Of a DNA stretch of 64,000 bases, positions 19,401 to 38,043 are shown piece after piece (position 1 is the stretch's first letter; each line of letters starts with the position of its first letter). The translations under genes were made by a program, and so were the position numbers. Source of the stretch: Candidatus Omnitrophota bacterium (lineage in GTDB: Bacteria; Omnitrophota; Gorgyraeia; Zapsychrales; Zapsychraceae); the NCBI GenBank assembly GCA_029261055.1, contig JAJDCA010000068.1, positions 5,275 through 69,274 on the forward strand, read 5' to 3'. The notes beneath the pieces are model-generated. The model made no database searches. It saw nothing but the letters and a program-made list of their open reading frames with translations, and was not told the DNA's origin.

Positions 19401-22400
19401 TTGTTCGAGATTGTCAGGAGAAAAAACAATGTCATCTTGAATTATTTCTCTCTTCTCATCCTTATCCTTTTTATATTCCTCCTCGAAAGGATAATCAACA
19501 AAACCAACATCACTTTTCCCCTCATATGTACCTATTGTAGGCATCGTCCGTTTTGATCCAGAAAGAATATTTTCCCCCACCATAACGGTTTTTCCATCTG
19601 GCAAAATTTTCTGATTCCCATGCAAATAGTTTTCCTCTGGAATCCAATCTTTAATATTTTCATCCCACTTCCATAATTTCCACCTACCATCCATTTTTAC
19701 ATTCACCTTGTGCATAATTTTTCCATCCCAAACAACATCCAAATCCTGTACAGGCTCATTGCCAGCGTTAATGCTTTTAAATTTTTCTTCTGTTTTGACA
19801 TCTTCAAAATCTACTGTTTTGGCATCTTCAAAAAGAACAAATCCGTTGTTCGTTCCTCTCAAAGAAACCTGACCATCTTCTGTAAATTTTGAAAAGACAA
19901 CATTAGCGTGATATTGAAGATGCGATCCTGTATTCATATCAAATTTATAACTATTATCATGATTCGTTAAAACTGCTGCGTATTGCGAATCCGAAGAAAT
20001 CTTCACATTTAGTACTTTGAGTCCCCCCTTAGCGAACGGTTCTTCCCCGAGAGCATCTTTAAATTCCTTCTCGTCTTGCCCATCTAAATGCACAATACCC
20101 TGAAAATTATCTGCAATAATGACAACTTTATTGCCGTCTAAGGCATCCTCGACTTTATGAATACGCCCTAAATTTTTACGAATCTCCTTCCAATCATCTT
20201 GAATCAAACTCGATGAAACAAAAAGCTTTCCATTTTTTTCTGCGTCAAATAATTTCTTACCATCTTTGGAAAATTGAAGAGTTCCTGTTGACATAACTGG
20301 CCTTAATAAATTTTCATCATTTTCATTCTTTCGTGCAATATCCCGCACTTTCCATACTTGCAGCTTATTTAACGTCAAAACAACCCTTCGAGTGACCGGC
20401 TCAGGCCCCGTATCATCTTCCACCCACGCATGCTGTACAATTACCTCCCCCTCCGGCGCGGTGTACGACTCTTTCACCTTCATTTGATCGGCTGGTAAGA
20501 CTTTGACTTTACTGACATCGGACGTATCATTTTTAGACATAATATTACGAATCGTCACATATTTTCCACGTCCATCATGGTTATAAATTTCCATCTGCGC
20601 AAGCTGGCCATGAATCAATTGAATATCGGCTAACTCAAGTATTTCAAGATCAGAATTAAGAGGCGCATCCATTTTATAGGTGCGCAAACCATCTGTAAGA
20701 TACAAACCAGCTGTTGCATTTCCCTCTGGAGCGTCTCTGAAAAACATAATATGCTTGCTATCCGGTAAAAACTTGGCTCTAATTGCATTCTCGAGTGAAT
20801 AATTCTCGTCTAGCGTCCATTCTCCAGAAATCGCATCTTTTTTCCATACAGTTATTTTGCCAAACTTTGCCTTAACAATTAATTTATTTTTATCCAAAGA
20901 TCTTTCCAAATATTCTATGGAATCATTTCCTGGCAAATTAAAAACATCTTTGGTCTCTTCTCCAGTATGGGAATCGCGAAATGAAATACCCCCACCTATT
21001 TTTCCAATTAAAACTACTTCATCATCTAAAGAAAATTTAGCAAAATTTATATTTGAATATTGCGATCTATAGATCCGTTCTCCATTTTCAATATTAATAA
21101 GATACACATTATAGTCAAACATCACGAAAGCAGCGAGTTTCCCATCTTTTGAAATTTCAATACTTTTCATATTCCCTTGCATATCTTTTAAAGGAATATC
21201 TTTACCTCCATTTAAACTTACAACACCTTGAAAATTCTTGGACATAACAAGAATACCCTTCTTAACTTTCTTAAGCTCAATCCCTCTCACAAGATCTAAA
21301 TTTTTATTTATTTTTATCCAATCATCCTCCTCTTTATTTACATATTTATAGCTAACCCCCTCTGACGTTGCCATCATCAGAATTCCCTCTTTAGATAATG
21401 TAAAACCATCATACTGACCAAGCGTTTCTTCTACTTTTGGAGTCCCCTCAATCATAGCTTGACCTTCAAAATTGCGCATTTCTCCCCAAACCCGCCATAC
21501 CACTTTCTTTTCACCATTATTTTCGATATCTTCACGCGTTACCACATACCAGAAGCCAGAATAATTTAATTCCACAAATTCGACAACACTTTCATTTTCC
21601 GAAATCCCCCAAGATTCAATATTTTCTTTTATTTTCTCCACAGGCAAAATTTCATCCTTACTGCCTTGTGTTGTCTGAGCATTCTCTGGCTCCAACTCCG
21701 CTTTCGCTTGTGCCACTTTCTTCTTATTAACCAACGCCTGCTTGCCTTGAACTCGGGAGTCTATTCTCTCTGTAAGCAAAGCTCTTCGAGCCTCTAAGTG
21801 TTTGCGTTCGTGCTTTTGCATACCAGAAGAAACTTGTTTTTTAAGAAAATCCCTTAATTGATTAATTTCACCTTCAAAAATTTCTTTTAATTCTATTTCA
21901 TGTTTAATTGAGTTTTTAAGATTTTGTAGTGTCAGGCCATTTCCAGAAGCATCCTTTATTTCTTCGGCTTTGATCGCTTCCTTTAATTTTTTAATTTTTT
22001 CTTCCTGTTTCGCAATTAAAGCTTCTTTTTCCTTAATAATATTTCTAAGCTGCTCCTGATCATTTGAAACACCACTAATCCTCTGTCCCAACATCACATC
22101 AACTTTCTCTAATTCCACTCTATCCGCCGCAAGCTCCCCATCATAATCGTCTTCCGTCATATCAATAACACCGGAGAGAGGTTGTTTTAATTCCTGTATC
22201 TTCTTCTCAACATGCTCAAGCATATCTTTGAAAAGATCTTTGTATGTTTCATTACGCAACAGGGGTGGAACCTTTTCCAAAGACGAAAGTTTATCTTCTT
22301 TTAGCTTATTGATTTGTTTAAAAAATTGATCTTTTAGATCCTTAACAGCACTTTTCTTCCCTTGCCCCATAGCTATCCGCCCAATTAAATCTCTTATGGA

Positions 22401-25400
22401 TAGCATGGCAGCGTCTTTTTTTCCCGAATTCAGCACTTCTCCACCACCTCCTCTGACAACAAAAGGCTGCAATTGAGTTCTATCTTCATTAAAAATAACG
22501 GCTTGATTTTGGTGGGGAAAGAATTTGGCTTCCCTCTGAGAAAATTTATTCTCCATTAATTTTCCATATATTTCACCTGTACGCGCATTCACAATTCCAA
22601 TATTATTAGATTTCCCAATGCCGAAGAAATGTTCATTATCCAAAAATACCGCCCCCAAGTTAAGCAGCGTTATTGAAAGATTTATCCAGGCAGGTGACGC
22701 AGGCATTATTCTTTCACCCGTCATAACATCCCACACGTGCAGCTTGCCTTCTTTATTCCTGGTCAACAAAGTTTTCCCATTGGGAGACAATTCCAGGTCA
22801 ACAATTTCCCCTGCGGCAGAAACAAGTATGGGAGGGGAATTTATCCCAGTATTAAGATCTCGTAAAATGACATTTTTTCCCTGAACAAACATTAAATATT
22901 TTGAACCTCTAGAGAATTTGGCGAAGGATACAGAATGTTCTTGCTGAATCTCTGATTTTGTGTCCATATTCCTAAAAGCCAACGTCCCAATTCCAATCTT
23001 ACCCTTTAGGCTCATAAACAACCACCGATTATTATCAGAAAGTTTACTGACCACCGAGATGCCGGCATTACCTAACGATAATAGATCTGATTCATCATCG
23101 ATTGCCCAATTCCATACGATCGTTTTCTTATCATTATGATCCTTTGTATTCTTTTCCATAATAATTCGTGAACCATCCTCTGAAAAAGAAAAATCATCAA
23201 ATTCACCTTCTTTACTTGTCGCCAACGGCTTACCCTTATCGATCTTGCGTACCTCCCATAATTCAATTTTCCTTTGTGATGGTTTATCCTTCCAAACCTC
23301 CTTGGCAACCTTAGTACCATCCGGCGAAAGATGGGCTGAATTTGTCACTAAAAGGTCAAAAGAATTTACTTCATCTCCCCCCTTCCTCACATCGCGCACA
23401 ATCCAATGATTTTTCCCATTCGCACGAACTATATTATCCTCCGTCAAAACCAGGCCACTTTGCGGCGAATAGTCGACAATGGTCTCACCCGGTGGGGCCG
23501 TGTACACATCCAACGCTTCCAAAACTATCTTGCCGCTACCGACTTTATTTTTCAAATCATTTGCGGCGGCAAGCTCCGCATTTTTTTTCTCCAGCGCCAA
23601 CTGCTCATCAAAAGATTGCTCCTGCTTCAGATACTTAGCCTTCTGCGCCGCCCATTTCTTTTTTTCCTTTTTAAAGGCTTCAATTTTGTCGGACAAATCA
23701 CTACCTGAAAAAGCTGATCCTCCTCCAACGTCTTTCGCAATCTCGTGGATGAGTACATGTTTTGTTTGGTCCCCTTCCTGCCATGTGGTGGCTTGTTCGA
23801 GATTATCAGGGGAAATATTTAAACCTTTAACTTGCATATTTTCTACATTTTTTAATTTACCTAAATCATTTATACGATGCACAGGTCCGTTCCCGCTTAT
23901 TACACCTAAGGCAGGTTTACCCTTATCTAAAACTCCTGCCGTCATAATTTGACCATCGGGTAAAAATTTTGATTCTTCGACCACCACTGAACTCAAGGGA
24001 TCCCATTTTCTAGCGTCTGGCTTCCATTCATACCTTGCCTTAAATCCTTTTGTTGCCACAATTAATTCCTTCTTATTAAAAGATAACTCTATATCCTGAA
24101 CAGCATCGCTTACCTGAAGCCCTTCTATTTTTAGAGCCCCTGTATGGGGACTTTTAATACTGACTCTTCCATCTTCCGAGCCTGTTAATATAAACTGGCC
24201 ATCCCTTGAAAATTTTGCAAAACTAACGCTATCCCCTTGAAGCATGAAGCCTTCCCCCGTCTCCATATTAAACAAATACAGAGCTTTCGACTTTGTCAAA
24301 ACAAGCGCCTTGCTCGAATCCGAATCGGGAGAAATGTCGATACTTTCGACTTCTCCCTCTAATTCTTCCCCGTTAACTTTAAATTCCTGCGTCTCCTTAC
24401 TCCGTCCATCCAAATACGCAATGCCTTTAAAATTTTCGGCGATCACTACCACTTTATTACTGTCTGAAGAATCTTCAAATTGCTCGATTTTTCCAAATTC
24501 ATATCGCACTCCACCCCTTGGCTCGCCCTCCAAATTTTCTCGAAAAACCCCATCAGGAGTTGCAAACAAGAATCTATTACCATCCTTAGATATCTTAGAT
24601 TTTTCCTCCTTACTTACCGTATCTTCTCGTAATGGATCTACACTCTCTTCTTGCTCAATATCGCGCACTCTCATTACCTTCGAATTAGGATCGTCAGCTT
24701 CCGCCTCAGTCAAAACAACCCTTCTCTTTACCGGCACATCCCCGTTACCATCCATCTCCCACGCCACCTGCATAATCTCTTCCCCATCCGGCGCAGTGTA
24801 CGTCTGAATCACCTTCATATCCTTCGCTGGCAGGACTTTAATGTCACCTTGTACAGTGTTCTTATCCTGCCCTGCTCCTGCCTCTGGATGTGCATCATCA
24901 ATAAGCCATTTATGGGAAACACGATCATAAACATTTTCGGAACTAATCTTTTCTCCCGTTTTTACATCAATAATTTCTCCATCTCGATGATGCTGCATCA
25001 AAACTTTTGTCCCACCAGGTGAAAGTTCAACATACGCTTTCGGCCATTCAAACACACGTAATTCTTTTCCACCTTTTACGTAACGCACATGCCATCGGTA
25101 ATGCTTTACCATTTTCGTATACGCATATTCTTTTTCTACTGTTAATACCCTCAACCCATCCTCTGAATATGAATGAACCTCCTCTGCGTCCTTAGGCTTA
25201 AAGGCGGGGGCACTGCTCATAAAATCAGCCACAGGCCAGACGTTTAACCCGCCTTTAACATGGGCTTTGACGTGGTGCTCTCCATCACGTGAAAATTCTA
25301 ATTCCGGCACCTCATCTTTCTCAAGCTTTTGTAAAGCATCCAATGCCGGCAGCTCTGTCCGCTCATTACCTTTTTTTTCTAAATCCTGCAACCAATATTT

Positions 25401-28400
25401 GCCCTCACCATCCACGACGGCTAAATAACGGCCATCATGAGAAAGGGCCACGGCTTTAACACCTTTTTTATGTTGCTTGGTTGCTTTTATTAATGCACCT
25501 TTTTCCGCATCCCATACACGCACTACCCCCATTTTACTAACTGTGGCTACCCTAGTGCTGTCCCGGGAAAAAACAGGCTCTAATGCGGCTTTAGTATTTT
25601 TTTCCAAATCAAGCACCCGCTTTTCTTTCTCAACATCCCACAACTTCGAAACCCCTCCATCTTTATCTAAAATAACCATCCTCTTATTATCCGGAGATAT
25701 TGTGGGTTGGACCTGAATTTTTAAACCTGTCTCTAACCCGAATCTGTACCCACTTTTAATATCCTTTACCCTCACCATGCCCTCTTCATCAGTCGCTATA
25801 ACCTTGGTTCCATCAGGAGAAATATCCGGATGCAACATTGGATCGTTAGGTAAACTCGATGATGTGGGGGATGTCGTGTCTATAGTATCAAATAGATCAT
25901 ATCTTCCACTATTCGTTGTCCTAAACACATGATTACCATCCGGCAAAAGTTTTGCAAAAGGATAATTACCTAAGTCAATACTTTCATCCTCACCTTTTAA
26001 GTCCCACCACACGAATTTTCCATTATCATCCTTTGTCAGTATTTTTGTTTCATCATCAGAAACACCTACCACTTTCGCATCAAATCTATGACCCCTATTC
26101 CATGTGACTAACTCAATATTTTTCATATCACGTATGCGCACGTTACGAGAAGCACTCGATGCGCCAATCTCCTTCTCCTGCGTCACCACCTTGCGGCCGT
26201 TCCAAAGAAACCCAATAACTTCCTCCCCTGGCAGTGGTTCATAATTTATAATCCCTTCCGTGTCCACCGCTCCTTGCTGCAATGCCTCTGCTTTCTGAGC
26301 CTCCACAGCCTTCGCCTCTTCTGCTTCTGCCGCTATTTCCTTAATCAACGCCTGTTTACCGTTAACCACCGCTATCAGTTTCTTTGTAAGAAGTTCCTCT
26401 TGTTTGTTTGGCCCCTGAACTTGAAGCTCGAGTTCTTTTATTTCTGCTTCTAATTCCTTTTCCCTTGTTCTATCTGGGAGAGCAACACCAGTTTCTAAAG
26501 TAATATCGCTTATATGTTGCTCTTTCACTAATTCCTTCTTAAGCCCTTCTATATTTCCAACCCCTTTTGACGGCTTACGAATTTTTATTAATTCTTTTTT
26601 CACTTCACTCTCAACCTTTTCGTAATCCTTCAGCGTTCTCTCGATATCTACAGGGCGGGATTGTTTTAATTCCTGTATCTTCTTCTCAACATGCTCAAAT
26701 ATATCTTTAAAAAGATCTTTGTGTGTTTTCCTGCTCAACAAAATTTGAACCTTTTCTAGAGGCTCAAGCTTATCTTTTTTCAAATCGGTGATCTTTTCAC
26801 GCAATTCCTTTTTTAGCTTACTAACAGCCTCCTCATCATTTTTCTGAAAATCTATCCACCAAATTAATTCTCCTATGGATAGCATGGAAAAATCTAACTC
26901 ATCCAATCCTTTCGTAAATTCAGGATCATAGGAATCTTCGATTTCCTTCATTGTTTGGTCAAAGAATGCGGCCGACCAATCGCGTTGAATACCCAAATTC
27001 TTAATAAGATCTTTCGTTGCATTCATTCTGTTCTTATTTCCCTCTTTATGTTGTTCCCATGTTTCGCCTTTACTTCGATAATTTAAAATAAAATCAATTT
27101 GATCCATAACCTTCTTCATCATAATCATTCGACTGCGTTGTTCCTCGAATTTCTTTAGTTCTTTCCATGATTTTTCGCTCAATAACTCTGCGATAATTTC
27201 ATTAAGATTTTCAATATTTTGCTCTGTTTGGCTTTCAAATGTATTGGTCCATAAGAGCTGGAGAATACGGTCTAATTCCGGATGACCTGTATCCGGCTCT
27301 TTGCCTTCTTCAATTTTCAAATTCTGAATAATGACACTTTCTTTATCAAGAAAATCAGAAATGGCATCAACGTCAGGATCATCACTAAACAATCCTTTTT
27401 CACCGGCCACATCTAAAATATTATTCTCGACCGGTGAAGTTTGATCAAAGTCACCCTCTATTTTAAAGGCCTTCATAAATTGTTCATGGATAATACGTTC
27501 TGAAATTTTTGTTTTGGCTCTCTTTTTAAAAGACTCACTCTTTTCTGTCCCTGTCTTTGCAATTTTTTGCAATCCATCAGCCCTCAAATAATTAAACCGA
27601 TCCACTAAAAACTTCACGTCTTTCACCAAAACACGCACACTGATTTCACGACGTTTAGGCAGAGTGGTACCGTCCAAAGATTGCCGATAATTTAACTCCT
27701 GCGCCATACCGATAATGCCGTCATATTTGACGCTTCCGTCAGGATAAGTTTCGTACTCTACATCGCTTACTTCTTGCTCCGACTTAGGAATCGGCATTCC
27801 GATAAGACGCGGATTAAGCCGCACCACTTCGCCGGTTGAATCTAGCTGTTTGGTTGAAACTTTACTTAAAAGTTTAAACATCAAGTGCGGCGGTAAAGGA
27901 TCAAATTGAATGGCAGGAAGACGTGCCAATAAATCTGCGGGAAGGCCCTTGATACCAGACGTAGAACCCGGGGTATTGCTTAAAGCAATCAATCCAAAAT
28001 TATCTGCCCCCTTACGCTTTTTATCCTTTTTCGTCGGATCAGGAGTCTCATCATATACAATCACATCATTCAAAGCACTAAGCACTTTATCTCTGGACTG
28101 CGCAATTTCTTCAACGATCAACACATTGCCTTCTCCATGCTCATCTTCCATAGCTAGCGGTAAGGCATTGATAGTTATCTTTGAATTACCACCCACCATC
28201 CCCTCCTGAAACGTAATCTGATCGAGCCGTGTTTGTGCTGTCATCTCAATCGTATGTTCTCCCGGTTTATTGCGCAGACGTACAATGGCCTTTGCTAACG
28301 TACTCTTTCCGCCCCCCGGGCCACCCACAAAATGAACTTTAATCTTCAATGCCTGCAATTGCAGCGTTAAATAAAGTTTCCCTACATTGGCTTTCAAATA

Positions 28401-31400
28401 CGTATTGACTTCATTTACATCCTTGGCCACATCAGCAAATTCAATCCAGTCAATAATCTCTTGCGGCAGGCCGGCATAATGAAAAGAAGCTTTAGAATGA
28501 ATAGGCAGCCTTATTTCATCCCAGAATTCTGTATTTTTTGGTGTAATAATGATTTCTTTGCCGGAAGGAGAAAGCTTAAAAGAATCTTTTGTTAATTCTA
28601 AATCCGGCACATTCAATTCATCCGGGCGCCAGGATGAAAAGTGCGTAATATTGCCGGCATACGTATCATTACTATCAATTTCCGCATGAAAATTAAAATA
28701 ATTTTTGATGGTGGTGAATGGACGGTACAACCAGTCTTTTTCATATTTAATTAAATGTTGAATCATAAAGGCCGTTAGCCGTGGATCCGGTGCACGTGTA
28801 AGCCGCTCCCCCTTAGAGTTGTCCGGACCATTTTCAAAAAGATCCCTGATCTTGGAGTCCCATCGCATTTGCGTGGCCAGATAACGTGGATCTAAAAGCT
28901 CCCAATCCTCAAAAATCGCGGCTTGTTGTTCGGGGCTGTATCCAAAAAAAGTCAAACGCAACTCATTGGAAATACGCACTAAATCCGTAATGTCTTGGGT
29001 AATTTTTTGTTCAAACTCCTCCCATCGATCATCATAGGTGCCTACATGTCTAGCAAATTTCAGGGCATCGGCCAATTGCCATTCAGCTTCTTCTTCGGTA
29101 GACTGCCAATGATATAAAATATTTTCATCCCGTTCCTGCATTGCCGTATTATTGGTGGTCCAATTTCCTGTAATGTTAGGCCACGGCGGATTTTCTGTGG
29201 TAATAATCCTGGACATCGGATGATCGCGCATCGTTTCAAATGTAACCATACCATCCCGCTCAACTTTCCACTCATGCGTCTTGGCGGGAATATGTGATTT
29301 GATGCCATCCCAAACACCCGGCTCATATTTATGTCGTTCATTCTCTATAATCCATCCCCCCACATGCTTCACATAATTTAATAAAGACGGTTTAAACCCG
29401 GTTGTCCCATTTTGCAAGGTCCGTGTCCCACGCGCAAGCCCTTCATCGGTTGCATCTTCATTACCGGTTTCTGAATACGTCGGCATATTAATTAACCGGG
29501 CTGCCGCAGACGGCATTTTGGTTTTGGCTAAACCCGGGCCTCCGGACAAAGTAACGGTCTGCCCTTCCCATGAGTCGGACATGCTATCCTGACTAACGGT
29601 TAAATCATACAACACCTGCCATGAACTTTTTTCCCGTTCAATAATCAAAACCCTTTTTTCCTGCCGGTTAAACGCCAAAATACGATTTGAATCTTGTTCA
29701 TAAAAATACCATTGCGTCAAATCCAAACCTTTCAAATCACCTAAACCTTGAAAATCACCATTCTCCTGACTGAGTAAAACCTTTTCTGAACTCTGTTCTA
29801 GTTTCACCTGTAACTTCTGAGTGTTTTCATACACCCCTTGATTTTCAACCATATGATCTGCGGAATCAAAAGCATGCAGGAATTTTAAATATCCATCCTC
29901 TTTATTTTCTTCCATCACCTCCAATTTTCCATCCTCAATACCATGAATAAAATATTTACCATCGGTGGAATAATCTGTGGGTGACCGTTGATCCGGCCGA
30001 TGTGTCGCCAAAAGAATATTAATTATTTTATCTTCATTAGCCTCTGTATCTTTAATCACTGTTGTCGGCACACCCATGCCACCCGGTCCCATTGGAAAAT
30101 ACAATGGATCCACACCTTCCCGTTGAAACATGAGCTTTTCTTGACCATTCACTTTTTTATTAAAAAAGTGACGATACTCTTCGGTTGTATTCAACTCTGA
30201 ATCTTCAACCACCATGGAAGCATCTTTTAATTGCAAATATTTTTGCCAATCACTGTCTGAAACAAACCCACTCTTTTCAATGGCCGTAAAAATGGCATCA
30301 CCCACTCTGGAAGGAAGCCCTGTGAAAGGAAACGGCTCAATCACCCGCTGCAACTGCCCCTTGGGTTGTTGATGCAACACTTTAGTATCCTCAACCTGCT
30401 TGGCCGTACCCATAGGGATAATAAACACATTAATGCCATGCTCTCTGGCCTTATTAATCAGCCCAAGAATTCTGGATTTTTGATTAGGATCAACATCTTC
30501 ATCCGTTAAAATAAATAAAATTTGCACGCCTTTTTTTTCGCTTCGCTCGGCCGCTGCAATCTGACTTGTAATATATTTCTCTAGATTATCGGCATAATGC
30601 GTGCCACCTCCTGCCTCCAAATTGGTCCACGCCCCATGCAATACCTTTTCTCGTTTAACATTGGGCTCTCGGATAGTCTCGCGTAATAATTGCAGATCTT
30701 TATCATCATCGGAAAAATAACCAACCTCATACCCAAGATCATCATCCACGATTACCTTGCGCATTTCATAATGTTGAAAAATAGAATCGGTCAAGACAAA
30801 GGATATGATACGTGCCATTTCAATCGGCAAATAATTGCTATTTTTTCTATCTTTCTCCCCCATGCTATAACTGCGATCAACCAATAAAGTAATATCCAAG
30901 GGTAATGGATCTTTTTTAATCGGATTATTATATCCCTGCGCACCCAGAAAAACATTAAGCGGCTGGGTCATAATCGCTCCATTGTCCAATAATTGACTTA
31001 ACTTAAAGCCGGTTGTTGCGATCAACAAGGCCTTAAACTGACGGGTTAGGCGCTTAACAAGCGTTCTAATCGTCACAACTGGTTTTCTTTTTAAAATATT
31101 TATAATGCTTAAAATTTTATTTAATGTTTTATTTTTATCGTCATATTCTGAAAATTTCTCTCTAAATTCTTTTTCATTAAAATTTTTACTAATTTGATGA
31201 TTCTCAAGAAATCCTTCTATTTCCATTTTCTCAATTAATTCTTCCCCATCAATATCCAAATCTCGAAAATGCTCCACTTGAAGAGTTCTGCCTTCGGATA
31301 TTTGCTTTTTATACCATGTTTGTAATTCGCGATGCTGCGTCTTATCCAACCCGCTTGTGGCTTCAATCTGTGCTTCTTCACGCAACTTGGCTGCCTTTAA

Positions 31401-34400
31401 ATCAAATTCTTTAGGTTTAATCGGTTTAATATCTGATGGCGGCAATGCTTCTTGTTTCTTTCCAGTCTCTCCTAAAGGTTTTACATCAGGCAGATTAATG
31501 GTATCGGGCATTTTTTGATAATTCTTTGACCTATCTTTTGCACCCTTTTGGGTTTCTCCTGCTTTAGCCGGTTCACTTTTGCTGCCTGAAGACTTATTCA
31601 TATCTTGAGATGCCTGTGAAGAAGATGTTTCCTGCTTGCCTTGCCCATCTTCTCCTCCTTTGTTATTTTTATTATCCTCGCCTTTCTTATTTTCTTTCTT
31701 CCCTGGCTCGCCTTTATCTTTTGATCCACTTAACGATTGTTGAATACCTTGAATAGATTTTTCTAATTGATGAAGGTTACGTAATACATCCCTATTGGCT
31801 CCTTGGGTTTGATCTACGCCTTTGTTAACATTATTTAAGGCCTTATTTAATTTTTCTGTTTCATCTGTAATTTGAGGCACATCCGGGGAAGGGGCATGCG
31901 TTTGCTTGACTAAGTTATCGGCAATGTGCTTAAGTTTGTTGGCCTTATCTTTCAAATTCTGTAACTTCTCTAATTGTTCCTGTGATTTTTTATCTACCCC
32001 GTTAGATAACTTTTTAGCCTCATTAGCTAACTCTGGAGAAGGCAAACCTTGTTGTATTTGAGAAACTTTTTCATTTTGCGCACTTCCCTCCCCCGCGGCC
32101 AAACGCCCTTTATTTAAAAGGTCTTGGGATTTGTCCTGAATGCCTTTTGCCTGCTGTTGAATTTCTTTTGATAATTTCTTTGAAGTATTTTTATCAGACT
32201 CACTCATTTTTCCCGGAGTAACATCCCCAGATTTCTTTTTAATATCGTCTAATTTTTTAGCAATAGTATTCGTGTTACTTGCTATAGCGTTTAATTGTTG
32301 TTCAAAATCCTTAAGCGCATTTTCAATATCATCCGTACTTTTAGGGGTAGCACCGGGTGATACCTGCCCTTGGCCCGAACCTTGAGATGAACCCTGACCT
32401 GACGATGCGGCAGATGTCTTTTGTGATGAGCCGCTACCCCCACCGGGTTGTGATAAATTTTCAAAACTCTTTTTTCCTTGTTCCATATCTTCACGAACGG
32501 CATCTTCAATGACTTTCTGAATTTCTTGCGGTAGGTTTTTACCATACTCATCAAGTTCTTTACGCTCTTCTTCTGTCAACTCTTCATAGACTTTACGAAC
32601 GATCTCTTTGGCTATTTCTTTAATCCCTTGCTTCAACTGTTCCTCTCGTCTATCTTGCTCTTCTTTCTTTTTGCGTTCATGTAGTCGTCGACGTTTCTTC
32701 TCCTTAAAAGCCTCTGCATACAATTCCAAATAAACCGGCCCGACCTTCTCATTGATAATCCTGATAATGTCCCCTTGTTTAAGTGATTCCGGTCTGTACA
32801 TCAGCTTAATCCACCCATCATCATTTACATCCTTCCCCATACTACGAACCAGCGCATCTTCCACCTGAGGATTTTTATTACGTGGATCTTTCATATTGCC
32901 TTGTTGATTTTCTTTGTAATGATATCGCAGATAAAGAAGGGAATCTAAATAACGTAAATGTAAATCGTAGGTGTTGTATTGTGCCTCCTCAATCAAAGGA
33001 TTGCCGATGTCATAACGATCCTGAAGAATCCGGCTCATCCATTTCCTGGAACCATCAAACTTTTGTTCAAAAGCTCTATGTTTAATATTCTCTGCATTCA
33101 CATCATGCCCAATGCCAGAAACCTTCGGAAAAAGAAGGGTATCCCACATCAGCAATGCATCGGGATGTTTTTTGATATCTTCATTCAAATCATCAATCAA
33201 ACCGCGTAAACCAAATTTAACACGGGAAATAGCAAGAAAGACCTGCCCCAGAGTACGGTCGCGTGCAGCCTGAAGCTTACCCTTTAAATCGTCTTTATTC
33301 TCTCCGTCATACGTTCGTGGATAACGATCTGTTTTTACATAATGCATTTGTCCCACCGAGGAATCCAACGACTTATACGTCCAAAAACCATAGGGGGCCG
33401 GTATAAATTCAACTTCCTGTTTGGCGGCTAAACGCTTGGCATATTCTTGCCATTCCTGATCGATTTTCTCTAACTCGCTAGCTAATTGAGGATTATCTTT
33501 TGTTGGATCCCCATAACGTTCATACAACACATCAAGAAAATCTTTAAACAAACGTAGGGGGTTGACGTCTTTTTGATTTTCCGACATACCCATCATAATC
33601 CCGCCCACCAAAAATCCCATCGCACGCTTTCTGGTGTATTCATCATTCAGTGCATCCTTTCGTAACCCTTTTGCTTCATAGACTTTTTCTACTTCCATCT
33701 CCAAATAATCCATCACAAAATAACCAGCCCGACGGTCTGATGTTCCAGGATGAATCATAAACCCGGTTTGTCCACTCAATCCCATTTCCTTACCTCGCTG
33801 ATACAACTCGCTAACCGCGGGTTCACCGAATTTATCAACGTCATGCGGAAGTTTTTCTTCCCCTTCTTTTAAATTCTTCCCCGCGTGCTGCACATATTCC
33901 ATCACGGATATCGCAAAGGTGATTTGCTCCCATTCAGGTGGCATTTTCAAAATTTTGTGCCCTATTTCATGAGGCAAGACAAGCCGCATCATCAGTTCAT
34001 CTTCAATTGGGCTTATGAGCACATTTCCCGTGTCCGGCGCGAATGCCCCTTTGGATTGACCAAAAGCTACGGGCATCTGCACAATAGCCGCCGCAATTTT
34101 CTTACGGCCTTCCAGATCTTTAAAACTTTCTCTCCAAAAATGCTCCGGAAGATAACTGTCAAAATTGTAGGGTTTAATGGTTTCATCTAACATTTTCATA
34201 ATTGCTTTTTCTTCAGCTGGATTATCAGATAATGCACTGGCCATTTCTTTTTGAATAGTATCAATGTGTTGTTGCGTTTTAAAAAGATGCTCCTTCTGCC
34301 CCACTCGCCGAAGCTCTTCCTTTAATACATTCATATCAAGGCCAACACCCTTTCCAGGAATATGCATTCCTACTAGCAAAGGATCGGCTATTTTACGATC

Positions 34401-35873
34401 AATCACATCCTCTTTAATCAAACGAAGCAAATTATCATCCGACATTTTCTTTACCGCCTGACTTAAAGGTTCCACAACTCCAATCCTGCGTTCTTGAGCC
34501 GCTTCAAATGCTTCGAGATTATTCTGATCTAACGCCATTAACATCTCTTGTTTTAAGGCATAATATCCCACGATCGATTCTTCCGGTGTTTTTACCTGCT
34601 CTAACATAGCATCGTCCGTTTTCACAATATCCCGTTCGAAATTCTTCAAGACACTTTCCGCTCTCACAAGACCTCGTTCATTGATCGCCTGATAATTGAC
34701 GGCCACCATGGCCTGATCTTCGAAACTTAATTGAGCAAAGTTAGTGATTTTTTGATACGCTTGATCAATCTGGTTTTCAAATTCAAACCCACCGGCAAAG
34801 TATTTGCGGGGAATAATGGTTTCGGTGGCGGCATCGTATTCTTCGCGGATGTAGTCGTAGACGCCTTTTTGGAAGGCTTCGAGGTATTGTTGGTAGATTT
34901 TTTCTTTGTTGATGTCTTCGGACTTGTCGACGCCGGCGGTCTTGCTTTGATTGACATACGCCTGTCCTAATAGTCCGTCTTTGAGTGTTCGTTTGTACCA
35001 CGTGGCGAGAATCATGGCATGGACGATTTGGCGGAGAGGCGCGAAGTGCTGACCTTCGTTAACTTCGCGTTCGATTTCGGGGAGAAGGATTTCACGGATA
35101 ATGGATGTGGTAATATTTGAATTCGTAGGGGCATGATTTATCATGCCCTTGTCTTGGGTTTGATGAATCAAACCCCTACGATCCGCGCCTTCCCTAAACA
35201 AATAATCCTCTTCCAACATCACCTTCAACCGCGACTCCACCACCCACGCGGTGCTTCCTTCTTCGTAAACAATCGCCTTCTCCGGTACGATCCAAACCTT
35301 GTTAAAGGTATTCACCGGGATATCGGTGACACCGTACTCTTCGTACGCCTTTTGATAAATTCGTTCCCAGAATTCTTCCCCCAGATCATCTTCCGGATAC
35401 ATGAGGGTGGATGTCAGTTGTTTGAGCAGATAATCCTGCGCCAGTAAATCCATACCCATTTGTGTTTGCGCTAAATCATCGGCAATAATACGGTCTTTTT
35501 CGTAAGGAGATAAATTGACCCAAAGGTGATCATCGGGAATAGTGAGGGCGGCCAGGAAATATTTGAGCAATTTGCCATATTCTTCTGTCTGGGCTTTCTT
35601 CGCAAGCACATCTTCGCCCTGATCTATCAGAAAATCCATCTGTAACGGATTCTGCAGATCCAGCTCAACCCCCATCAAAAGAGGCGGTGCATAGGCAGAC
35701 GGGCTTAAAGGCACCATCGCCCCAGGCACAGGCATGGCCGGTAATATTTGTGCAAGTCCGCTTAGAGGCATCGTCATAGTAAATATAATGACCATACCTA
35801 CAACTACACAGCGAAACGGCACACCGAATCGTTTTTTATGAATTATTCTTAACATATTGGTCCTATTTAGCAA
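13425..35873 (-). CDS. Giant 7482-aa multi-module protein: signal peptide, N-terminal domain, HEXXH + VWA module, tandem MoxR-like AAA module, WD40-like beta-propellers with coiled coils, short C-terminal tail (GGINL...FPGLVPVILNITP)
   Basis: Single open frame of 22,449 bp. HEIGH at 33957-33971; MIDAS DRSYS at 30864-30878; Walker A GGPGLAKT at 29520-29543 and GGPGGGKST at 28299-28325; many S-P-D-G/N and W-D blade motifs between 26300 and 14850. Confidence 0.9.
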   Translation of the reverse strand: MLNRTNMLRIIHKKRFGVPFRCVVVGMVIIFTMTMPLSGLAQILPAMPVPGAMVPLSPSAYAPPLLMGVELDLQNPLQMDFLIDQGEDVLAKKAQTEEYGKLLKYFLAALTIPDDHLWVNLSPYEKDRIIADDLAQTQMGMDLLAQDYLLKQLTSTLMYPEDDLGEEFWERIYQKAYEEYGVTDIPVNTFNKVWIVPEKAIVYEEGSTAWVVESRLKVMLEEDYLFREGADRRGLIHQTQDKGMINHAPTNSNITTSIIREILLPEIEREVNEGQHFAPLRQIVHAMILATWYKRTLKDGLLGQAYVNQSKTAGVDKSEDINKEKIYQQYLEAFQKGVYDYIREEYDAATETIIPRKYFAGGFEFENQIDQAYQKITNFAQLSFEDQAMVAVNYQAINERGLVRAESVLKNFERDIVKTDDAMLEQVKTPEESIVGYYALKQEMLMALDQNNLEAFEAAQERRIGVVEPLSQAVKKMSDDNLLRLIKEDVIDRKIADPLLVGMHIPGKGVGLDMNVLKEELRRVGQKEHLFKTQQHIDTIQKEMASALSDNPAEEKAIMKMLDETIKPYNFDSYLPEHFWRESFKDLEGRKKIAAAIVQMPVAFGQSKGAFAPDTGNVLISPIEDELMMRLVLPHEIGHKILKMPPEWEQITFAISVMEYVQHAGKNLKEGEEKLPHDVDKFGEPAVSELYQRGKEMGLSGQTGFMIHPGTSDRRAGYFVMDYLEMEVEKVYEAKGLRKDALNDEYTRKRAMGFLVGGIMMGMSENQKDVNPLRLFKDFLDVLYERYGDPTKDNPQLASELEKIDQEWQEYAKRLAAKQEVEFIPAPYGFWTYKSLDSSVGQMHYVKTDRYPRTYDGENKDDLKGKLQAARDRTLGQVFLAISRVKFGLRGLIDDLNEDIKKHPDALLMWDTLLFPKVSGIGHDVNAENIKHRAFEQKFDGSRKWMSRILQDRYDIGNPLIEEAQYNTYDLHLRYLDSLLYLRYHYKENQQGNMKDPRNKNPQVEDALVRSMGKDVNDDGWIKLMYRPESLKQGDIIRIINEKVGPVYLELYAEAFKEKKRRRLHERKKKEEQDRREEQLKQGIKEIAKEIVRKVYEELTEEERKELDEYGKNLPQEIQKVIEDAVREDMEQGKKSFENLSQPGGGSGSSQKTSAASSGQGSSQGSGQGQVSPGATPKSTDDIENALKDFEQQLNAIASNTNTIAKKLDDIKKKSGDVTPGKMSESDKNTSKKLSKEIQQQAKGIQDKSQDLLNKGRLAAGEGSAQNEKVSQIQQGLPSPELANEAKKLSNGVDKKSQEQLEKLQNLKDKANKLKHIADNLVKQTHAPSPDVPQITDETEKLNKALNNVNKGVDQTQGANRDVLRNLHQLEKSIQGIQQSLSGSKDKGEPGKKENKKGEDNKNNKGGEDGQGKQETSSSQASQDMNKSSGSKSEPAKAGETQKGAKDRSKNYQKMPDTINLPDVKPLGETGKKQEALPPSDIKPIKPKEFDLKAAKLREEAQIEATSGLDKTQHRELQTWYKKQISEGRTLQVEHFRDLDIDGEELIEKMEIEGFLENHQISKNFNEKEFREKFSEYDDKNKTLNKILSIINILKRKPVVTIRTLVKRLTRQFKALLIATTGFKLSQLLDNGAIMTQPLNVFLGAQGYNNPIKKDPLPLDITLLVDRSYSMGEKDRKNSNYLPIEMARIISFVLTDSIFQHYEMRKVIVDDDLGYEVGYFSDDDKDLQLLRETIREPNVKREKVLHGAWTNLEAGGGTHYADNLEKYITSQIAAAERSEKKGVQILFILTDEDVDPNQKSRILGLINKAREHGINVFIIPMGTAKQVEDTKVLHQQPKGQLQRVIEPFPFTGLPSRVGDAIFTAIEKSGFVSDSDWQKYLQLKDASMVVEDSELNTTEEYRHFFNKKVNGQEKLMFQREGVDPLYFPMGPGGMGVPTTVIKDTEANEDKIINILLATHRPDQRSPTDYSTDGKYFIHGIEDGKLEVMEENKEDGYLKFLHAFDSADHMVENQGVYENTQKLQVKLEQSSEKVLLSQENGDFQGLGDLKGLDLTQWYFYEQDSNRILAFNRQEKRVLIIEREKSSWQVLYDLTVSQDSMSDSWEGQTVTLSGGPGLAKTKMPSAAARLINMPTYSETGNEDATDEGLARGTRTLQNGTTGFKPSLLNYVKHVGGWIIENERHKYEPGVWDGIKSHIPAKTHEWKVERDGMVTFETMRDHPMSRIITTENPPWPNITGNWTTNNTAMQERDENILYHWQSTEEEAEWQLADALKFARHVGTYDDRWEEFEQKITQDITDLVRISNELRLTFFGYSPEQQAAIFEDWELLDPRYLATQMRWDSKIRDLFENGPDNSKGERLTRAPDPRLTAFMIQHLIKYEKDWLYRPFTTIKNYFNFHAEIDSNDTYAGNITHFSSWRPDELNVPDLELTKDSFKLSPSGKEIIITPKNTEFWDEIRLPIHSKASFHYAGLPQEIIDWIEFADVAKDVNEVNTYLKANVGKLYLTLQLQALKIKVHFVGGPGGGKSTLAKAIVRLRNKPGEHTIEMTAQTRLDQITFQEGMVGGNSKITINALPLAMEDEHGEGNVLIVEEIAQSRDKVLSALNDVIVYDETPDPTKKDKKRKGADNFGLIALSNTPGSTSGIKGLPADLLARLPAIQFDPLPPHLMFKLLSKVSTKQLDSTGEVVRLNPRLIGMPIPKSEQEVSDVEYETYPDGSVKYDGIIGMAQELNYRQSLDGTTLPKRREISVRVLVKDVKFLVDRFNYLRADGLQKIAKTGTEKSESFKKRAKTKISERIIHEQFMKAFKIEGDFDQTSPVENNILDVAGEKGLFSDDPDVDAISDFLDKESVIIQNLKIEEGKEPDTGHPELDRILQLLWTNTFESQTEQNIENLNEIIAELLSEKSWKELKKFEEQRSRMIMMKKVMDQIDFILNYRSKGETWEQHKEGNKNRMNATKDLIKNLGIQRDWSAAFFDQTMKEIEDSYDPEFTKGLDELDFSMLSIGELIWWIDFQKNDEEAVSKLKKELREKITDLKKDKLEPLEKVQILLSRKTHKDLFKDIFEHVEKKIQELKQSRPVDIERTLKDYEKVESEVKKELIKIRKPSKGVGNIEGLKKELVKEQHISDITLETGVALPDRTREKELEAEIKELELQVQGPNKQEELLTKKLIAVVNGKQALIKEIAAEAEEAKAVEAQKAEALQQGAVDTEGIINYEPLPGEEVIGFLWNGRKVVTQEKEIGASSASRNVRIRDMKNIELVTWNRGHRFDAKVVGVSDDETKILTKDDNGKFVWWDLKGEDESIDLGNYPFAKLLPDGNHVFRTTNSGRYDLFDTIDTTSPTSSSLPNDPMLHPDISPDGTKVIATDEEGMVRVKDIKSGYRFGLETGLKIQVQPTISPDNKRMVILDKDGGVSKLWDVEKEKRVLDLEKNTKAALEPVFSRDSTRVATVSKMGVVRVWDAEKGALIKATKQHKKGVKAVALSHDGRYLAVVDGEGKYWLQDLEKKGNERTELPALDALQKLEKDEVPELEFSRDGEHHVKAHVKGGLNVWPVADFMSSAPAFKPKDAEEVHSYSEDGLRVLTVEKEYAYTKMVKHYRWHVRYVKGGKELRVFEWPKAYVELSPGGTKVLMQHHRDGEIIDVKTGEKISSENVYDRVSHKWLIDDAHPEAGAGQDKNTVQGDIKVLPAKDMKVIQTYTAPDGEEIMQVAWEMDGNGDVPVKRRVVLTEAEADDPNSKVMRVRDIEQEESVDPLREDTVSKEEKSKISKDGNRFLFATPDGVFRENLEGEPRGGVRYEFGKIEQFEDSSDSNKVVVIAENFKGIAYLDGRSKETQEFKVNGEELEGEVESIDISPDSDSSKALVLTKSKALYLFNMETGEGFMLQGDSVSFAKFSRDGQFILTGSEDGRVSIKSPHTGALKIEGLQVSDAVQDIELSFNKKELIVATKGFKARYEWKPDARKWDPLSSVVVEESKFLPDGQIMTAGVLDKGKPALGVISGNGPVHRINDLGKLKNVENMQVKGLNISPDNLEQATTWQEGDQTKHVLIHEIAKDVGGGSAFSGSDLSDKIEAFKKEKKKWAAQKAKYLKQEQSFDEQLALEKKNAELAAANDLKNKVGSGKIVLEALDVYTAPPGETIVDYSPQSGLVLTEDNIVRANGKNHWIVRDVRKGGDEVNSFDLLVTNSAHLSPDGTKVAKEVWKDKPSQRKIELWEVRKIDKGKPLATSKEGEFDDFSFSEDGSRIIMEKNTKDHNDKKTIVWNWAIDDESDLLSLGNAGISVVSKLSDNNRWLFMSLKGKIGIGTLAFRNMDTKSEIQQEHSVSFAKFSRGSKYLMFVQGKNVILRDLNTGINSPPILVSAAGEIVDLELSPNGKTLLTRNKEGKLHVWDVMTGERIMPASPAWINLSITLLNLGAVFLDNEHFFGIGKSNNIGIVNARTGEIYGKLMENKFSQREAKFFPHQNQAVIFNEDRTQLQPFVVRGGGGEVLNSGKKDAAMLSIRDLIGRIAMGQGKKSAVKDLKDQFFKQINKLKEDKLSSLEKVPPLLRNETYKDLFKDMLEHVEKKIQELKQPLSGVIDMTEDDYDGELAADRVELEKVDVMLGQRISGVSNDQEQLRNIIKEKEALIAKQEEKIKKLKEAIKAEEIKDASGNGLTLQNLKNSIKHEIELKEIFEGEINQLRDFLKKQVSSGMQKHERKHLEARRALLTERIDSRVQGKQALVNKKKVAQAKAELEPENAQTTQGSKDEILPVEKIKENIESWGISENESVVEFVELNYSGFWYVVTREDIENNGEKKVVWRVWGEMRNFEGQAMIEGTPKVEETLGQYDGFTLSKEGILMMATSEGVSYKYVNKEEDDWIKINKNLDLVRGIELKKVKKGILVMSKNFQGVVSLNGGKDIPLKDMQGNMKSIEISKDGKLAAFVMFDYNVYLINIENGERIYRSQYSNINFAKFSLDDEVVLIGKIGGGISFRDSHTGEETKDVFNLPGNDSIEYLERSLDKNKLIVKAKFGKITVWKKDAISGEWTLDENYSLENAIRAKFLPDSKHIMFFRDAPEGNATAGLYLTDGLRTYKMDAPLNSDLEILELADIQLIHGQLAQMEIYNHDGRGKYVTIRNIMSKNDTSDVSKVKVLPADQMKVKESYTAPEGEVIVQHAWVEDDTGPEPVTRRVVLTLNKLQVWKVRDIARKNENDENLLRPVMSTGTLQFSKDGKKLFDAEKNGKLFVSSSLIQDDWKEIRKNLGRIHKVEDALDGNKVVIIADNFQGIVHLDGQDEKEFKDALGEEPFAKGGLKVLNVKISSDSQYAAVLTNHDNSYKFDMNTGSHLQYHANVVFSKFTEDGQVSLRGTNNGFVLFEDAKTVDFEDVKTEEKFKSINAGNEPVQDLDVVWDGKIMHKVNVKMDGRWKLWKWDENIKDWIPEENYLHGNQKILPDGKTVMVGENILSGSKRTMPTIGTYEGKSDVGFVDYPFEEEYKKDKDEKREIIQDDIVFSPDNLEQAETYTENGEIKHVFIRQIAESTDDDAPPSDNNLPAQIKALEEEEKQRRLMEIELNARAKGIDAELVKIQKKVDREAPKESAEEETQGDANTLAKIKELEALKVQAAEQNEQDQPDGTPKLSPINPAYEAPPGETIVDYWPESERALTWKEIELADLNTQDIIKAYEWRVRDTKDNKELFPKFDTLEKNVVRLSPDGTKIALKSGSTTNHKVDVWSVEDDTKRTFVNSTEVTGFISSLSFSSDGKEIVIGSRKGPIGSQTEKSIVTTWHWEKSGSPKFSQISQEGKIRYKQLSSDNKTLLTLDESNTQRVWNMEAEIGIELTDFRREGIALARLSSDGNNVISIKKSKSDDGYPVWIRNINGAEPSRFGIWEEAKFTDLSPDEDTLLIIDENGKLVLRDAQTGEKIKQDSKAWEEFKHMVNKFGYFLPDNEHFLSIGSHTPSATTLIIMRNFKTGEVANWSYIKFNPEEIQFYPDRLQVMVRNKEGSKQQVFSVGKIESLNPNDLDQPVKIPEGKDKNFKKMLSLSKQLVQAIKERIGNVKVRAVVGNKPALVEELDQEKEEIDKKITNLEAGLRKLRGVQRRTRADYKKGVSEVDPELEKANKMLGIDESEEDVVDSNISNKDWLRKRILELEGLIAEQQRNVENFETKLAKIATSASLSEIERLEKLREGSRDTKRVFELERKKLEEELRKQDSAMLQKYEREYWEARKDFLTKKKESLVEGERALSKQEESEAAVQAEVDAQKAEGLQKGAIDRRMPVNYTPPEGEEVIAYLWKGRKVVTQEFIAGKPSAGNPNIMDKDTWKVHIRDVESNGELVLLDRLLYSKVRWIEISDDETKMLAGHDFGVMLWNFNDIESSIDLGADNPSQARFSSDSNQVIITYFSQAIEVYDITKKWSDSKLVPVNPILYPDIGAYESKKIVATDMEGGVSVWDVIIEQTVDKIKISLLQLAKLETGLKIEVQPRISPNNKWIVILDKDGGVSKLWDVNNERPLKELEKNTSANVGPVYSLDSTRVATVSKKDGIVRWWYAQTGDFKGEADPFEDGVKALALSSDGIYLAVVDGKGKYWLENMDTKQRIELPAPDALKNVDKDVVPKLEFSTEGPLRVMAHMKSGLTVWPVAKFMSTGQPRAVKVLAAKDMTVIQPYTAPDNEEIVQVAWLMDGSKKGAPPVKRRIVLTREDRQGKPPHWRVRDTAKGADEELLSFPAGVENVVVKLSGDGRILWIGGESSMQWVDVLPDDVGSRPLFTNAIQINPEKSFIVDAPDGEKSVIIADNFQGIVPVDESKEIKEFKVNGKRLEEKVESIDINSDSTKVVLLTEKGKQYLFDMTTGKGKFLSGNASFTRFTKDGEFILTGMESGFVNFHDKDGNVIDNKGFDSGNREVKNLELSQDGKMIIVTTSFNRTVWEDKVGDNDWKKIDILETADGQVAKFLPNSHHIINAGVRVGFIKGDGRGVEEVSNSVHTLIDNSFKKNTKIKAYDLEFSPDRLEAAEMYKDENGKVKYAHIRQIAEPLDGGDDVVDNDRPVKIEALKKETAQWMEIEDEWNQREKEIDGLLAQEKAAFEAKASNQKDAPNTQAGTLKIKELETKIKSKIKERDGYTLTVGELAVVTKKAMANKDIHDWTAELAALKAQGADPIELDKQLEVSKGVDDEISDLSKQWVQAMEERIEKRKTRVAAKDDLTESVKLDQEIATLDQAIATLSEDLRKRREASDSKVVDKENYNTQNQKTSVIDQETAETIVSIKVLKTIKDMVTGKTLDGGTVSIDTRSSMRTLILDSSIGVLKGQLPKDTIMDENIDEQIKILRTMLTDDSKLDKLLESKALKEVGASSVEKDARIAAVQKVLKSLEEKQRIMAEIEGIKKVLQENKDYFKAMPDDGSIKSKDARMEANSSIVDYEATLSRLEEKLKNVDNAMLNQKTKASLGGINLDPQGMDMQIQGQGLELNLDPAMLQQQMRDIQTGNFPGLVPVILNITPAQLPPALLQLTLSKK
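35125..35179. repeat. GTAG-type REP doublet (REPIN-like) inside the giant gene
   Basis: GTAGGGGCATGATTTATCATGCCC (35125-35148) plus inverted GGGTTTGATGAATCAAACCCCTAC (35156-35179); the first is the exact reverse complement of 42017-42040. Confidence 0.8.
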
Positions 35874-37209: not shown

Positions 37210-37247
37210 GGCTATTCTCCTTCTGCCAATAAGCATACCACTCAATT

Positions 37248-37385: not shown

Positions 37386-37796
37386 TTACAGGATTTTTAT
37401 CCCTATTTTCCGACATACGGCATTTAATTTTTTATCGAAAGATGCCATATCTAAATTTTTCCTTAAGGCGAGCTCTATATAAGAAGCATCATAAACTGTT
37501 ATTTTATGCTCTCGACTGATAGCTAAAATATCTTTTGTAATGTTATCGTAACTATTATTTTCCACAAAAAGCGACAAATCTTTTAAACTACTAATAAAAG
37601 AAACAGAATCTGCTTCCTTTATGCGTCCATTTTTCTCTGCAATAAATAACGCATTCGACAATTCATATGGCCATAATGAAGGGACATAGGCATTTTGCTT
37701 AAGAAGCTTGTTCAATAACTCTTGAGATTTTTTAGTGTTTTCGTCTTTAAACACCCAACTTAAAATGACGGAATTATCTACGACAAAATCTTTCAA
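37386..37796 (-). CDS. vapC: VapC PIN-domain toxin
   Basis: FVVDNS, VPSLWPYELSNAL, TVYDASYIELA and SFDKKL. Confidence 0.9.
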   Translation of the reverse strand: MKDFVVDNSVILSWVFKDENTKKSQELLNKLLKQNAYVPSLWPYELSNALFIAEKNGRIKEADSVSFISSLKDLSLFVENNSYDNITKDILAISREHKITVYDASYIELALRKNLDMASFDKKLNAVCRKIGIKIL

Positions 37797-38032: not shown

Positions 38033-38043
38033 AATACCCTCCT

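Follow-up and report, generated by a model that had tools for sequence, protein, structure and literature searches.

The stretch of DNA analysed here (the window; 64,000 nucleotides of contig JAJDCA010000068.1) belongs to a Candidatus Omnitrophota genome of 3.67 Mb and 94.65% completeness. In one of its open reading frames (ORF; 13425-35873, minus strand), of 7,482 amino acids (aa), a zincin-like HExxH region, a VWA domain and two tandem AAA domains follow a predicted signal peptide. The likelier start codon is the ATG at aa 7 (35855), with AGGA upstream. A first-pass annotation had proposed a MoxR-clade AAA, VWA and zincin-like HExxH system in a single chain behind a Sec-like signal peptide; our results support this architecture, and all the motifs quoted for it lie in one frame of this ORF. 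The range it delimited, hereafter the cassette, corresponds to aa 424-2993 and is bounded on both sides by DxAM-type motifs, to which we refer as markers. Beyond the cassette, the chain has a head domain of 370 aa ahead of it and, behind it, WD40 units in three paralogous versions (aa 2999-7402) that lead into a conserved tail (Table 1), with Pfam WD40 propellers filling residues 3001-7482 and units C and D aligning from their first residues on (E 7e-18). An assembly chimera or a frameshift finds no support, since an independent assembly, which probably stems from the same sample and checks the assembly only, covers 26669-35139 in a contig of 8,471 bases with zero differences.

Hidden Markov model searches, a check suggested with the first-pass annotation, placed the VWA and AAA2 domains over their cut-offs, but left AAA1 alone and the HExxH region below significance. 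Searched as a cut-out piece, the VWA domain scored 28.7 bits against Pfam PF00092 (cut-off 23.8) and thus qualifies as a family member. The D, S, S and D residues of its metal ion-dependent adhesion site (MIDAS) are invariant in 25/25 aligned copies (the alignment omits G026, whose excerpt missed the motif), and the MIDAS Thr, variable in distant relatives, is present in this copy. Against AAA_5 (PF07728), AAA2 scored 51.3 bits (E 1.6e-13) and AAA1 alone 15.7 bits (E 0.016), under the cut-off of 22. The identity of AAA1 is established through its relatives: two AAA_5 stretches were found by Pfam in 7/7 homologous cassette proteins scanned, and AAA1 of this copy aligns to them with all key columns. 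The best PDB matches of the AAA profile (A1) were midasin (E 6e-34, summed over modules), NorQ (3e-9), CbbQ (5e-8) and CobS (9e-6); a single-sequence PDB search returned designed P-loop proteins only. The AAA pair of a distant copy matched 453 phage records, mostly CobS among the annotated matches listed.

The residues required for ATP hydrolysis were tallied in 21 aligned relatives (frameshifted AAA1 excluded G482, and G141, G462, G059, G477 and G464 were omitted as contig-cut copies). Both AAA domains have the catalytic Glu, the sensor-1 Asn and the Arg finger in 21/21 sequences, the Walker A Lys is kept in 20/21 AAA1 and 21/21 AAA2 sequences, and the sensor-2 Arg in 20/21 and 16/21, respectively; this copy presents all five in both domains. 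The first Walker B residue varies, being D in 12, R in 6, N in 2 and S in 1 of the AAA1 sequences, and D in 9, E in 6, S in 4, T in 1 and N in 1 of the AAA2 sequences. Both Walker B motifs had been described as non-canonical, and the residues are indeed as read, with N2178 (AAA1) and E2588 (AAA2) in place of the canonical Asp; they are not peculiar to this protein, however, and judging from the alignments the deviation is a family-wide trait. The Walker A of AAA1 mostly reads K-D/N/G/E; GKE is also found in sigma-54 activators that are active, and MoxR proper has GLAKT. The earlier suggestion of a partly inactive scaffold is hence weakened: with these three catalytic features unchanged in either domain across the relatives, the pair is unlikely to be a dead scaffold, and the ATPases are probably not dead, though this copy drifts faster, with both of its AAA domains on long branches.

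The HExxH region returned no significant Pfam or PHROG family and only an NCBIfam match far below cut-off. A PDB search with its profile yielded two unrelated weak matches only, and an ESM Atlas search with aa 420-1140 no named family (best score 0.82). The HExxH motif and a Glu ten residues downstream (H, E, H, E) are invariant in 27/27 rows, and the motif is therefore not a chance occurrence. In a structure model of the region (pLDDT 88, pTM 0.85), the chain follows a strand-strand-helix-helix course, with HExxH on the helix after a beta-hairpin and the third-ligand Glu on the next helix, as in gluzincins. VIA-align separated two zincin-like lobes in this model (residues 1-199 and 210-365), the first weakly matching M36, M4 and M1 peptidases (Z 4.0-4.5) and the second minigluzincins and Ste24 (Z 5.1-6.4); the top rows are mostly zincin-fold proteins, with a best Z of 6.4, and CobT is not among the matches listed. 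Profile comparison with hhalign gave E 0.3 for lobe 1 against lobe 2 and E 0.37 for the HExxH region against the peptidase of cyanophage Syn1.

Both His of the HExxH are gone from lobe 2 in all 27 rows, yet the lobe 2 profile matches a domain with an intact HEVWH...EDSRV motif in another genome of the class, G220 (E 2e-37). This homology indicates, at the level of sequence, that the lobe usual in such partners (lobe 2) is a pseudo-peptidase, and that HEIGH sits in an added zincin-like lobe, lobe 1, which is a predicted Zn peptidase. Stand-alone partners associated with CobS/MoxR (Syn1, Natribaculum) are composed of HExxH...ED, linker and VWA. CobT-like proteins are encoded by a separate gene beside the ATPase and carry an N-terminal HExxH...EDxR domain directly ahead of the linker; here everything lies in one ORF, lobe 2 is devoid of HExxH, and labelling it CobT-like draws on shared motif and position. 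The linker spans 389-524 aa in the 7 of the first cassettes in which it is correctly aligned, G394b being misaligned.

Table 1. Features of the giant ORF, with window positions and protein residues (all on the minus strand).
Feature	Residues	Window positions	Strand	Remarks
Sec/signal peptidase I-like signal peptide	1-41	35751..35873	(-)	KKR at 13, GLA-Q at 39-42; cleavage predicted from family pattern; holds the only Cys of the protein (C22)
Conserved head domain	42-419	34617..35750	(-)	Common to 78 ORFs of own genome, 63 near full length
Marker DDAML	420-424	34602..34616	(-)	Cassette start
Zincin-like lobe 1	590-790	33504..34106	(-)	HEIGH at 635 (33957-33971), E649 (33927-33929); predicted Zn peptidase
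Zincin-like lobe 2	795-1062	32688..33491	(-)	Without HExxH; occupies position of N-terminal domain of VWA partner
Low-complexity, coiled-coil-like linker		31074..32687	(-)	About 525 aa, K/E/Q/S/G rich
VWA domain		30279..30956	(-)	Pfam PF00092; MIDAS residues in DRSYS 1666, GGGTHY 1755 (T), ILTDE 1788 (D)
Marker DASMV	1884-1888	30210..30224	(-)	Between VWA and AAA unit; candidate cut site
Small conserved block and variable insert		29577..30209	(-)	Ahead of AAA1; no family
AAA1	2100-2400	28674..29576	(-)	GGPGLAKT 2111, IIENE 2175; K2117, E2179, N2228, R2248, R2365 kept; N2178 replaces Walker B Asp
AAA2	2495-2800	27474..28391	(-)	Pfam AAA_5; GGPGGGKST 2517, VLIVEE 2584, LSN 2631, LPADLLARL 2644; K2523, S2524, E2588-E2589, N2633, R2651, R2747
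Tail of AAA unit	2801-2993	26895..27473	(-)	Poor conservation
Marker DFSML	2994-2998	26880..26894	(-)	Cassette end; repeat position equals DAAML 4487
Unit C		22416..26879	(-)	Coiled-coil-like segment and WD40 propellers
Marker DAAML	4487	22401..22415	(-)	
Unit D		17322..22400	(-)	Paralogue of unit C
Marker DSAML	6185	17307..17321	(-)	
Unit E		13668..17306	(-)	Paralogue of parts of C and D
Marker DNAML and conserved GGINL tail	7403 (marker)	13425..13667	(-)	

Searches of genomes of the class matched the AAA pair in 8/401 (including this genome and G220, which has a different architecture) and the HExxH-VWA part in 9/401, and a profile matched 24/401 genomes in the phylum. We assembled 27 cassette copies from 25 genomes, with one further record added, all in giant or contig-cut ORFs; the analysis leaves aside L088 and G432:C114 (partial), as well as three weak matches (G513, G369, G023). 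As far as the contigs reach, the domains run from the HExxH lobe through the second lobe, linker, VWA and AAA1 to AAA2, some domains of distant copies being below threshold in this mapping. Intact copies occupy ORFs that range from 2,600 to 35,000 aa and differ in their N-termini, and frameshifts or a stop interrupt three copies. A tree built on the HExxH region and one built on the AAA pair agree in a 13/8 split with 100/100 support and in most subgroups, which argues on phylogenetic grounds that the cassette is inherited, or travels, as a unit. Word-index searches found no relative among shorter proteins with a single query, nor among proteins of 1,319-3,765 aa with profile A1; both negatives are weak, and stand-alone tandem forms are possible. 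A metagenome scan returned no relative.

Some of these records depart from the common pattern. The 6,405-aa ORF of G220 (L028:5158-19998, minus strand) has an M28 peptidase match in its N-terminal part and three canonical AAA_5 modules interleaved with WD40 propellers, followed by the intact HEVWH...EDSRV domain, a linker and a VWA domain, which is the midasin order. In G427:C9, an 11,850-aa ORF contains the whole cassette twice (L083 and L084), with RSExR at each junction. Two records titled Planctomycetia/Planctomycetales (L093, L095) hold close cassette copies; L093 matches G328, of the same class as the present genome, and L095 has a head domain next door, and the titles are probably wrong.

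The head domain has no Pfam or PHROG family, and its ESM Atlas look-alikes are unnamed and mostly from Omnitrophota (best score 0.89). Most of the ORFs that carry it in this genome also have a GGI tail. A hydrophobic N-terminal stretch was present in 64/64 heads examined, with [AG]-Q behind the h-region in 56/64 (8.5% in the background) and a lipobox in 0/64, and no other hydrophobic segment was detected in the giant chain. Behind the signal peptide, the chain counts 0 Cys over 7,441 residues, where 87 were expected, compared with 54 Cys in 3,254 residues for the seven cytoplasmic genes of the window; across the head-and-tail family, Cys makes up 0.07% of residues, against 1.17% in 1,213 other long ORFs, a background that includes some spurious frames. 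These data support export at family level, and the family pattern makes it likely that the Sec-like signal peptide is cut by signal peptidase I and that the chain passes the periplasm. The protein thus joins signal peptide, conserved head, DxAM markers, GGI tail and Cys depletion, the traits of the Omnitrophota head-and-tail family, for which we found no name in the literature. Pfam matches were obtained for 8/21 other family members, including PGK, uridine kinase with CYTH, PPDK, receiver and cytidylyltransferase domains. PGK, and a MoxR adjoining three VWA genes, are also encoded by ordinary separate genes, so that the cargo copies are extras.

In three family members of this genome, L107 (C13), L099 (C6) and L105 (C72), the cargo is a second PGK, a uridine kinase with CYTH and a PPDK domain, respectively, with markers at or near the cargo domain edges. 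The same genome contains a 44,966-aa open frame (G000:C73:4324-139221, plus strand) with 12 HExxH motifs.

The D-x-[AS]-M motif occurs 2.3 times per 1000 aa in 63 family ORFs and 0.18 times in 1,318 other ORFs, a 12-fold enrichment, and a de novo motif search of cargo from elsewhere than this gene ranked D.AM first (49 instances, 3.9 expected). In ten other copies, the top motif outside the cassettes was RSE.R (43 instances, 0.48 expected). Markers in this protein lie at aa 386, 420, 1884, 2994, 4487, 6185, 7403 and 7439, that is, around the end of the head, between VWA and AAA, after AAA, between the WD40 units and in the tail; in other family members they bracket PGK, a kinase-CYTH pair and a receiver. 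At the VWA-AAA junction of 26 cassettes we found DxAM in 4, GARL in 1, RSExR in 11, a hydrophobic stretch in 7 and nothing recognisable in 3. In the 12 motif-type cassettes that are complete in one ORF, 15/15 motifs fall in this junction, which makes up 4.8% of the length (nominal binomial P 2e-20, an overstated value), and none within the linker of 390-525 aa. The tree shows at least 7 switches of marker type (minimum 4; for RSExR, at least 3 on starred branches), with the position of the marker kept. Synonymous codons are used freely at 190 DxAM and 53 RSExR sites, with no Shine-Dalgarno or purine-rich site ahead of the Met, which argues against an internal restart at this Met or a DNA recombination scar and indicates, from codon usage and context, that the marker is a peptide signal. 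A TCN bias at Ser in the markers fits descent by copying. The 12 motif-type cassettes total 7 Cys, and the other 8 cassettes 67.

Hydrophobic stretches replace the motif in L015, L016, L019, L022, L079, L085 and L086 (19-residue mean 1.3-2.2), and the six complete cassettes of this kind keep 6-12 Cys each; these cassettes may be handled via a membrane-linked route.

Within the head domain, an in-frame insertion (aa 229-251; 35121-35189) resembles a multi-copy DNA repeat: a 57-base contig with depth 229, compared with about 30, and many loose ends corresponds to this interval, and a similar peptide occurs at another position in a head of G281 (L013 ORF aa 75-98). The giant gene and its flank lie between a purine operon and secG-tpi-pgk. 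Its neighbours (35989-37245, 37793-38098, 12347-12673 and 4166-4495, all on the minus strand) comprise a 418-aa P-loop protein without NCBIfam match and toxin-antitoxin-like genes, among them a Phd antitoxin and, below cut-off, DhiT-like and MntA-like genes.

The layout of the cassette can be compared with several known systems. Jumbo phages encode a pair composed of MoxR and a metallopeptidase-vWA protein (Iyer et al. 2021, PMC7824862), and in cyanophage Syn1 a 'peptidase' (HEVGH, EDAR, linker, DWSGS) lies directly ahead of cobS. The order HExxH domain, long linker, C-terminal VWA and AAA_5 ATPase is shared with these; unlike the phage pair, the cassette is one ORF with tandem AAA domains, a signal peptide and markers, and its canonical peptidase lobe has lost the HExxH, which a further lobe carries. 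NorQ-NorD, CbbQ-CbbO and CobS-CobT likewise unite a clade-7 AAA+ protein with an N-domain/linker/VWA partner, in two-gene, cytoplasmic, homohexameric systems with a known client (PMC13036017), and their ATPases are the best PDB sequence matches after midasin. The cassette differs from them in its tandem AAA domains, in having no neighbouring client gene and in its predicted export.

Midasin/Rea1, the top profile match, likewise has its AAA_5 modules and its MIDAS domain encoded by a single gene, with six AAA modules followed by a linker and the C-terminal MIDAS, whereas the cassette has two modules, a VWA domain N-terminal of them and a marker in between. VWA8 likewise has AAA plus VWA in one chain. 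The one-chain analogy with midasin and VWA8 drawn in the first-pass annotation is, given these differences in order and module number and the intervening marker, probably misleading. A quick tree of AAA1 and AAA2 with outgroups gave weak deep support (27) as to the origin of the duplication. MoxR-vWA ternary conflict systems of the beta-propeller type, with a proposed role in conflict, also bring together MoxR-clade AAA, vWA and beta-propellers, but spread over several genes, one of which joins the propeller to vWA (Kaur et al. 2020, PMC7159879); the cassette is one ORF, and domain scans of this protein and its relatives gave no bpMoxR match.

Giant proteins of Omnitrophota with cytoplasmic-type enzymes behind a signal peptide have been reported (West-Roberts et al. 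2023, 10.1101/2023.11.21.568195; 10.64898/2026.06.07.730766), and are mentioned in passing in the Lipocone paper. The former work names AAA_5 in a supplementary legend and proposes cleavage into smaller products, posing as an open question whether the giants work whole or cut. VWA or MoxR are not mentioned in the main text of either work where searched (the supplements may list the architecture), no cut-site motif is described in the available passages, and those of 10.64898/2026.06.07.730766 contain no mention of AAA, cleavage or motifs. Unlike the giants published there, the present protein has no C39 or S8 match and no internal transmembrane helix. A literature search (polyprotein, MoxR, von Willebrand, tandem AAA), with most subscription papers outside its reach, did not find a published account of the cassette. 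The cassette is real and conserved, a variant form of the MoxR/CobS-VWA system within an undescribed export scaffold; this work adds the observation that markers of three motif types occupy one and the same junction, the division of the HExxH region into two lobes, the counts of key residues and the difference in Cys content.

Given which domains are present and in what order, the conservation of the catalytic residues, the inheritance of the cassette as one piece, where the markers lie and the lack of Cys, we propose that a CobS/MoxR-type AAA+ motor and its peptidase-linker-VWA partner are packed into an exported, marker-cut polyprotein and remodel a target where ATP exists, most likely in a host or prey, a reading for which we see evenly balanced prospects. 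The chain would undergo Sec-type export, lose its signal peptide to signal peptidase I and cross the periplasm, its head and tail domains routing it to a secretin-type machine. A protease would then cut at the DxAM markers, a step that their placement makes moderately probable, so that aa 425-1883 would be released as a VWA adaptor and aa 1889-2993 as a tandem-AAA motor. Three tandem-AAA chains could assemble into a pseudo-hexamer on which one adaptor docks, as NorD on NorQ or CobT on CobS; cutting would lift the ratio of three adaptors per ring imposed by the fusion and free the VWA C-terminus about 20 residues behind the domain, leaving an end like that of NorD, which contacts the NorQ ring (PMC13036017). 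The adaptor MIDAS would grip an acidic residue of the target, ATP-driven pulling would open it, lobe 1 may then cut the opened target, and the WD40 units may act as binding modules. The need of the machine for ATP after export points to the cytoplasm of a host or prey, and delivery there, as envisaged in the first-pass annotation, is plausible; prey cytoplasm as the site of action is the weakest step of the proposal and one that we put slightly short of even. In its broadest form, a lineage-specific cleavage code (DxAM, RSExR, GARL) would pack multi-subunit machines into exported polyproteins, and this gene would send an AAA+ unfoldase that assembles by itself and brings a zinc protease of its own into the prey cytoplasm via a secretin-type route, as an effector for ATP-driven remodelling and degradation of a type that our literature search did not return; this extension is, on balance, doubtful.

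Several observations weigh against the proposed mechanism. The junction limits were drawn after inspecting the data and GARL was picked by eye; kin are not independent, leaving about 3-5 independent junction cases; and 10/26 cassettes present no short motif at the junction. A motif falls inside 1/10 Pfam stretches of other members, 9 aa from the end of the stretch, where about 3.7 were expected, which is the right direction but not significant. No protease for DxAM was identified and no cleavage observed. Low Cys is not exclusive to the family, as the stand-alone MoxR of this genome has 0 Cys in 347 aa. The genome holds 8 secretins, and searches found no FlhB/EscU of type III secretion or flagella and no VipB of type VI secretion, with two weak VirB4-like matches only. 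The zincin fold matches all have Z < 8, Foldseek returned nothing at E <= 0.001 against the PDB and a viral library, and the lobe 2 profile did not match the N-domains of the Syn1 or Natribaculum partners. Finally, this copy has lost 7/59 near-invariant AAA columns, of which each of three sisters lacks 0-1; its identity to these sisters is 40-43%, whereas they share 55-60% with one another.

That no protease was identified, together with the contiguous ORF, the cassettes with a hydrophobic stretch or nothing recognisable at the junction, and the precedent of midasin, in which AAA and VWA function in one chain, would suit a protein that is exported but never cut, working as a midasin-like single-chain machine at the surface or a contact site, with markers serving as linkers or secretion chaperone tags. 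We consider this unlikely, albeit the strongest of the alternatives, since three unrelated motif types lie exactly at the ancestral gene boundary and markers never occur in the linker, the best place for a neutral spacer. Furthermore, the fusion would set three VWA domains against six AAA domains, a ratio that departs from the descriptions of NorQD and CobST, and ATP is scarce outside cells. The cargo could instead stay in the cytoplasm of the producer, through an uncleaved N-terminal anchor or a cut on the cytoplasmic side: AAA+ and other family cargo (PGK, uridine kinase, PPDK) need cytoplasmic ATP, no classical injection system was found in the genome, and signal-peptide cleavage was deduced from the family pattern. 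Retention is nevertheless improbable in view of the signal peptidase I-like pattern in most heads, the lack of Cys in the mature chain relative to the cytoplasmic genes of the window and the existence of housekeeping copies as separate genes. An ATPase pair that is partly or wholly dead in this genome, left to provide the peptidase and propellers with a scaffolding ring or a decoy, would accord with the Asn at the AAA1 Walker B, the long branches, the lost columns and the pseudo-enzyme state of lobe 2, but is equally improbable with all catalytic columns kept here and unchanged or almost unchanged across 21 relatives, some as little as 16% identical, and with a first Walker B position that is variable family-wide.

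The cassette provides a natural test of giant-protein cutting, as it derives from a two-gene pair. Where the two genes once met, lineages whose marker motifs are unrelated all have a marker of their own, which defines exact peptides to seek in proteomes. In addition, the tandem CobS/MoxR-type ATPase stands between the homohexameric MoxR rings and the six-module midasin, and a machine that depends on ATP yet follows a signal peptide is relevant to the way in which these bacteria, likely predators or parasites, affect their hosts.

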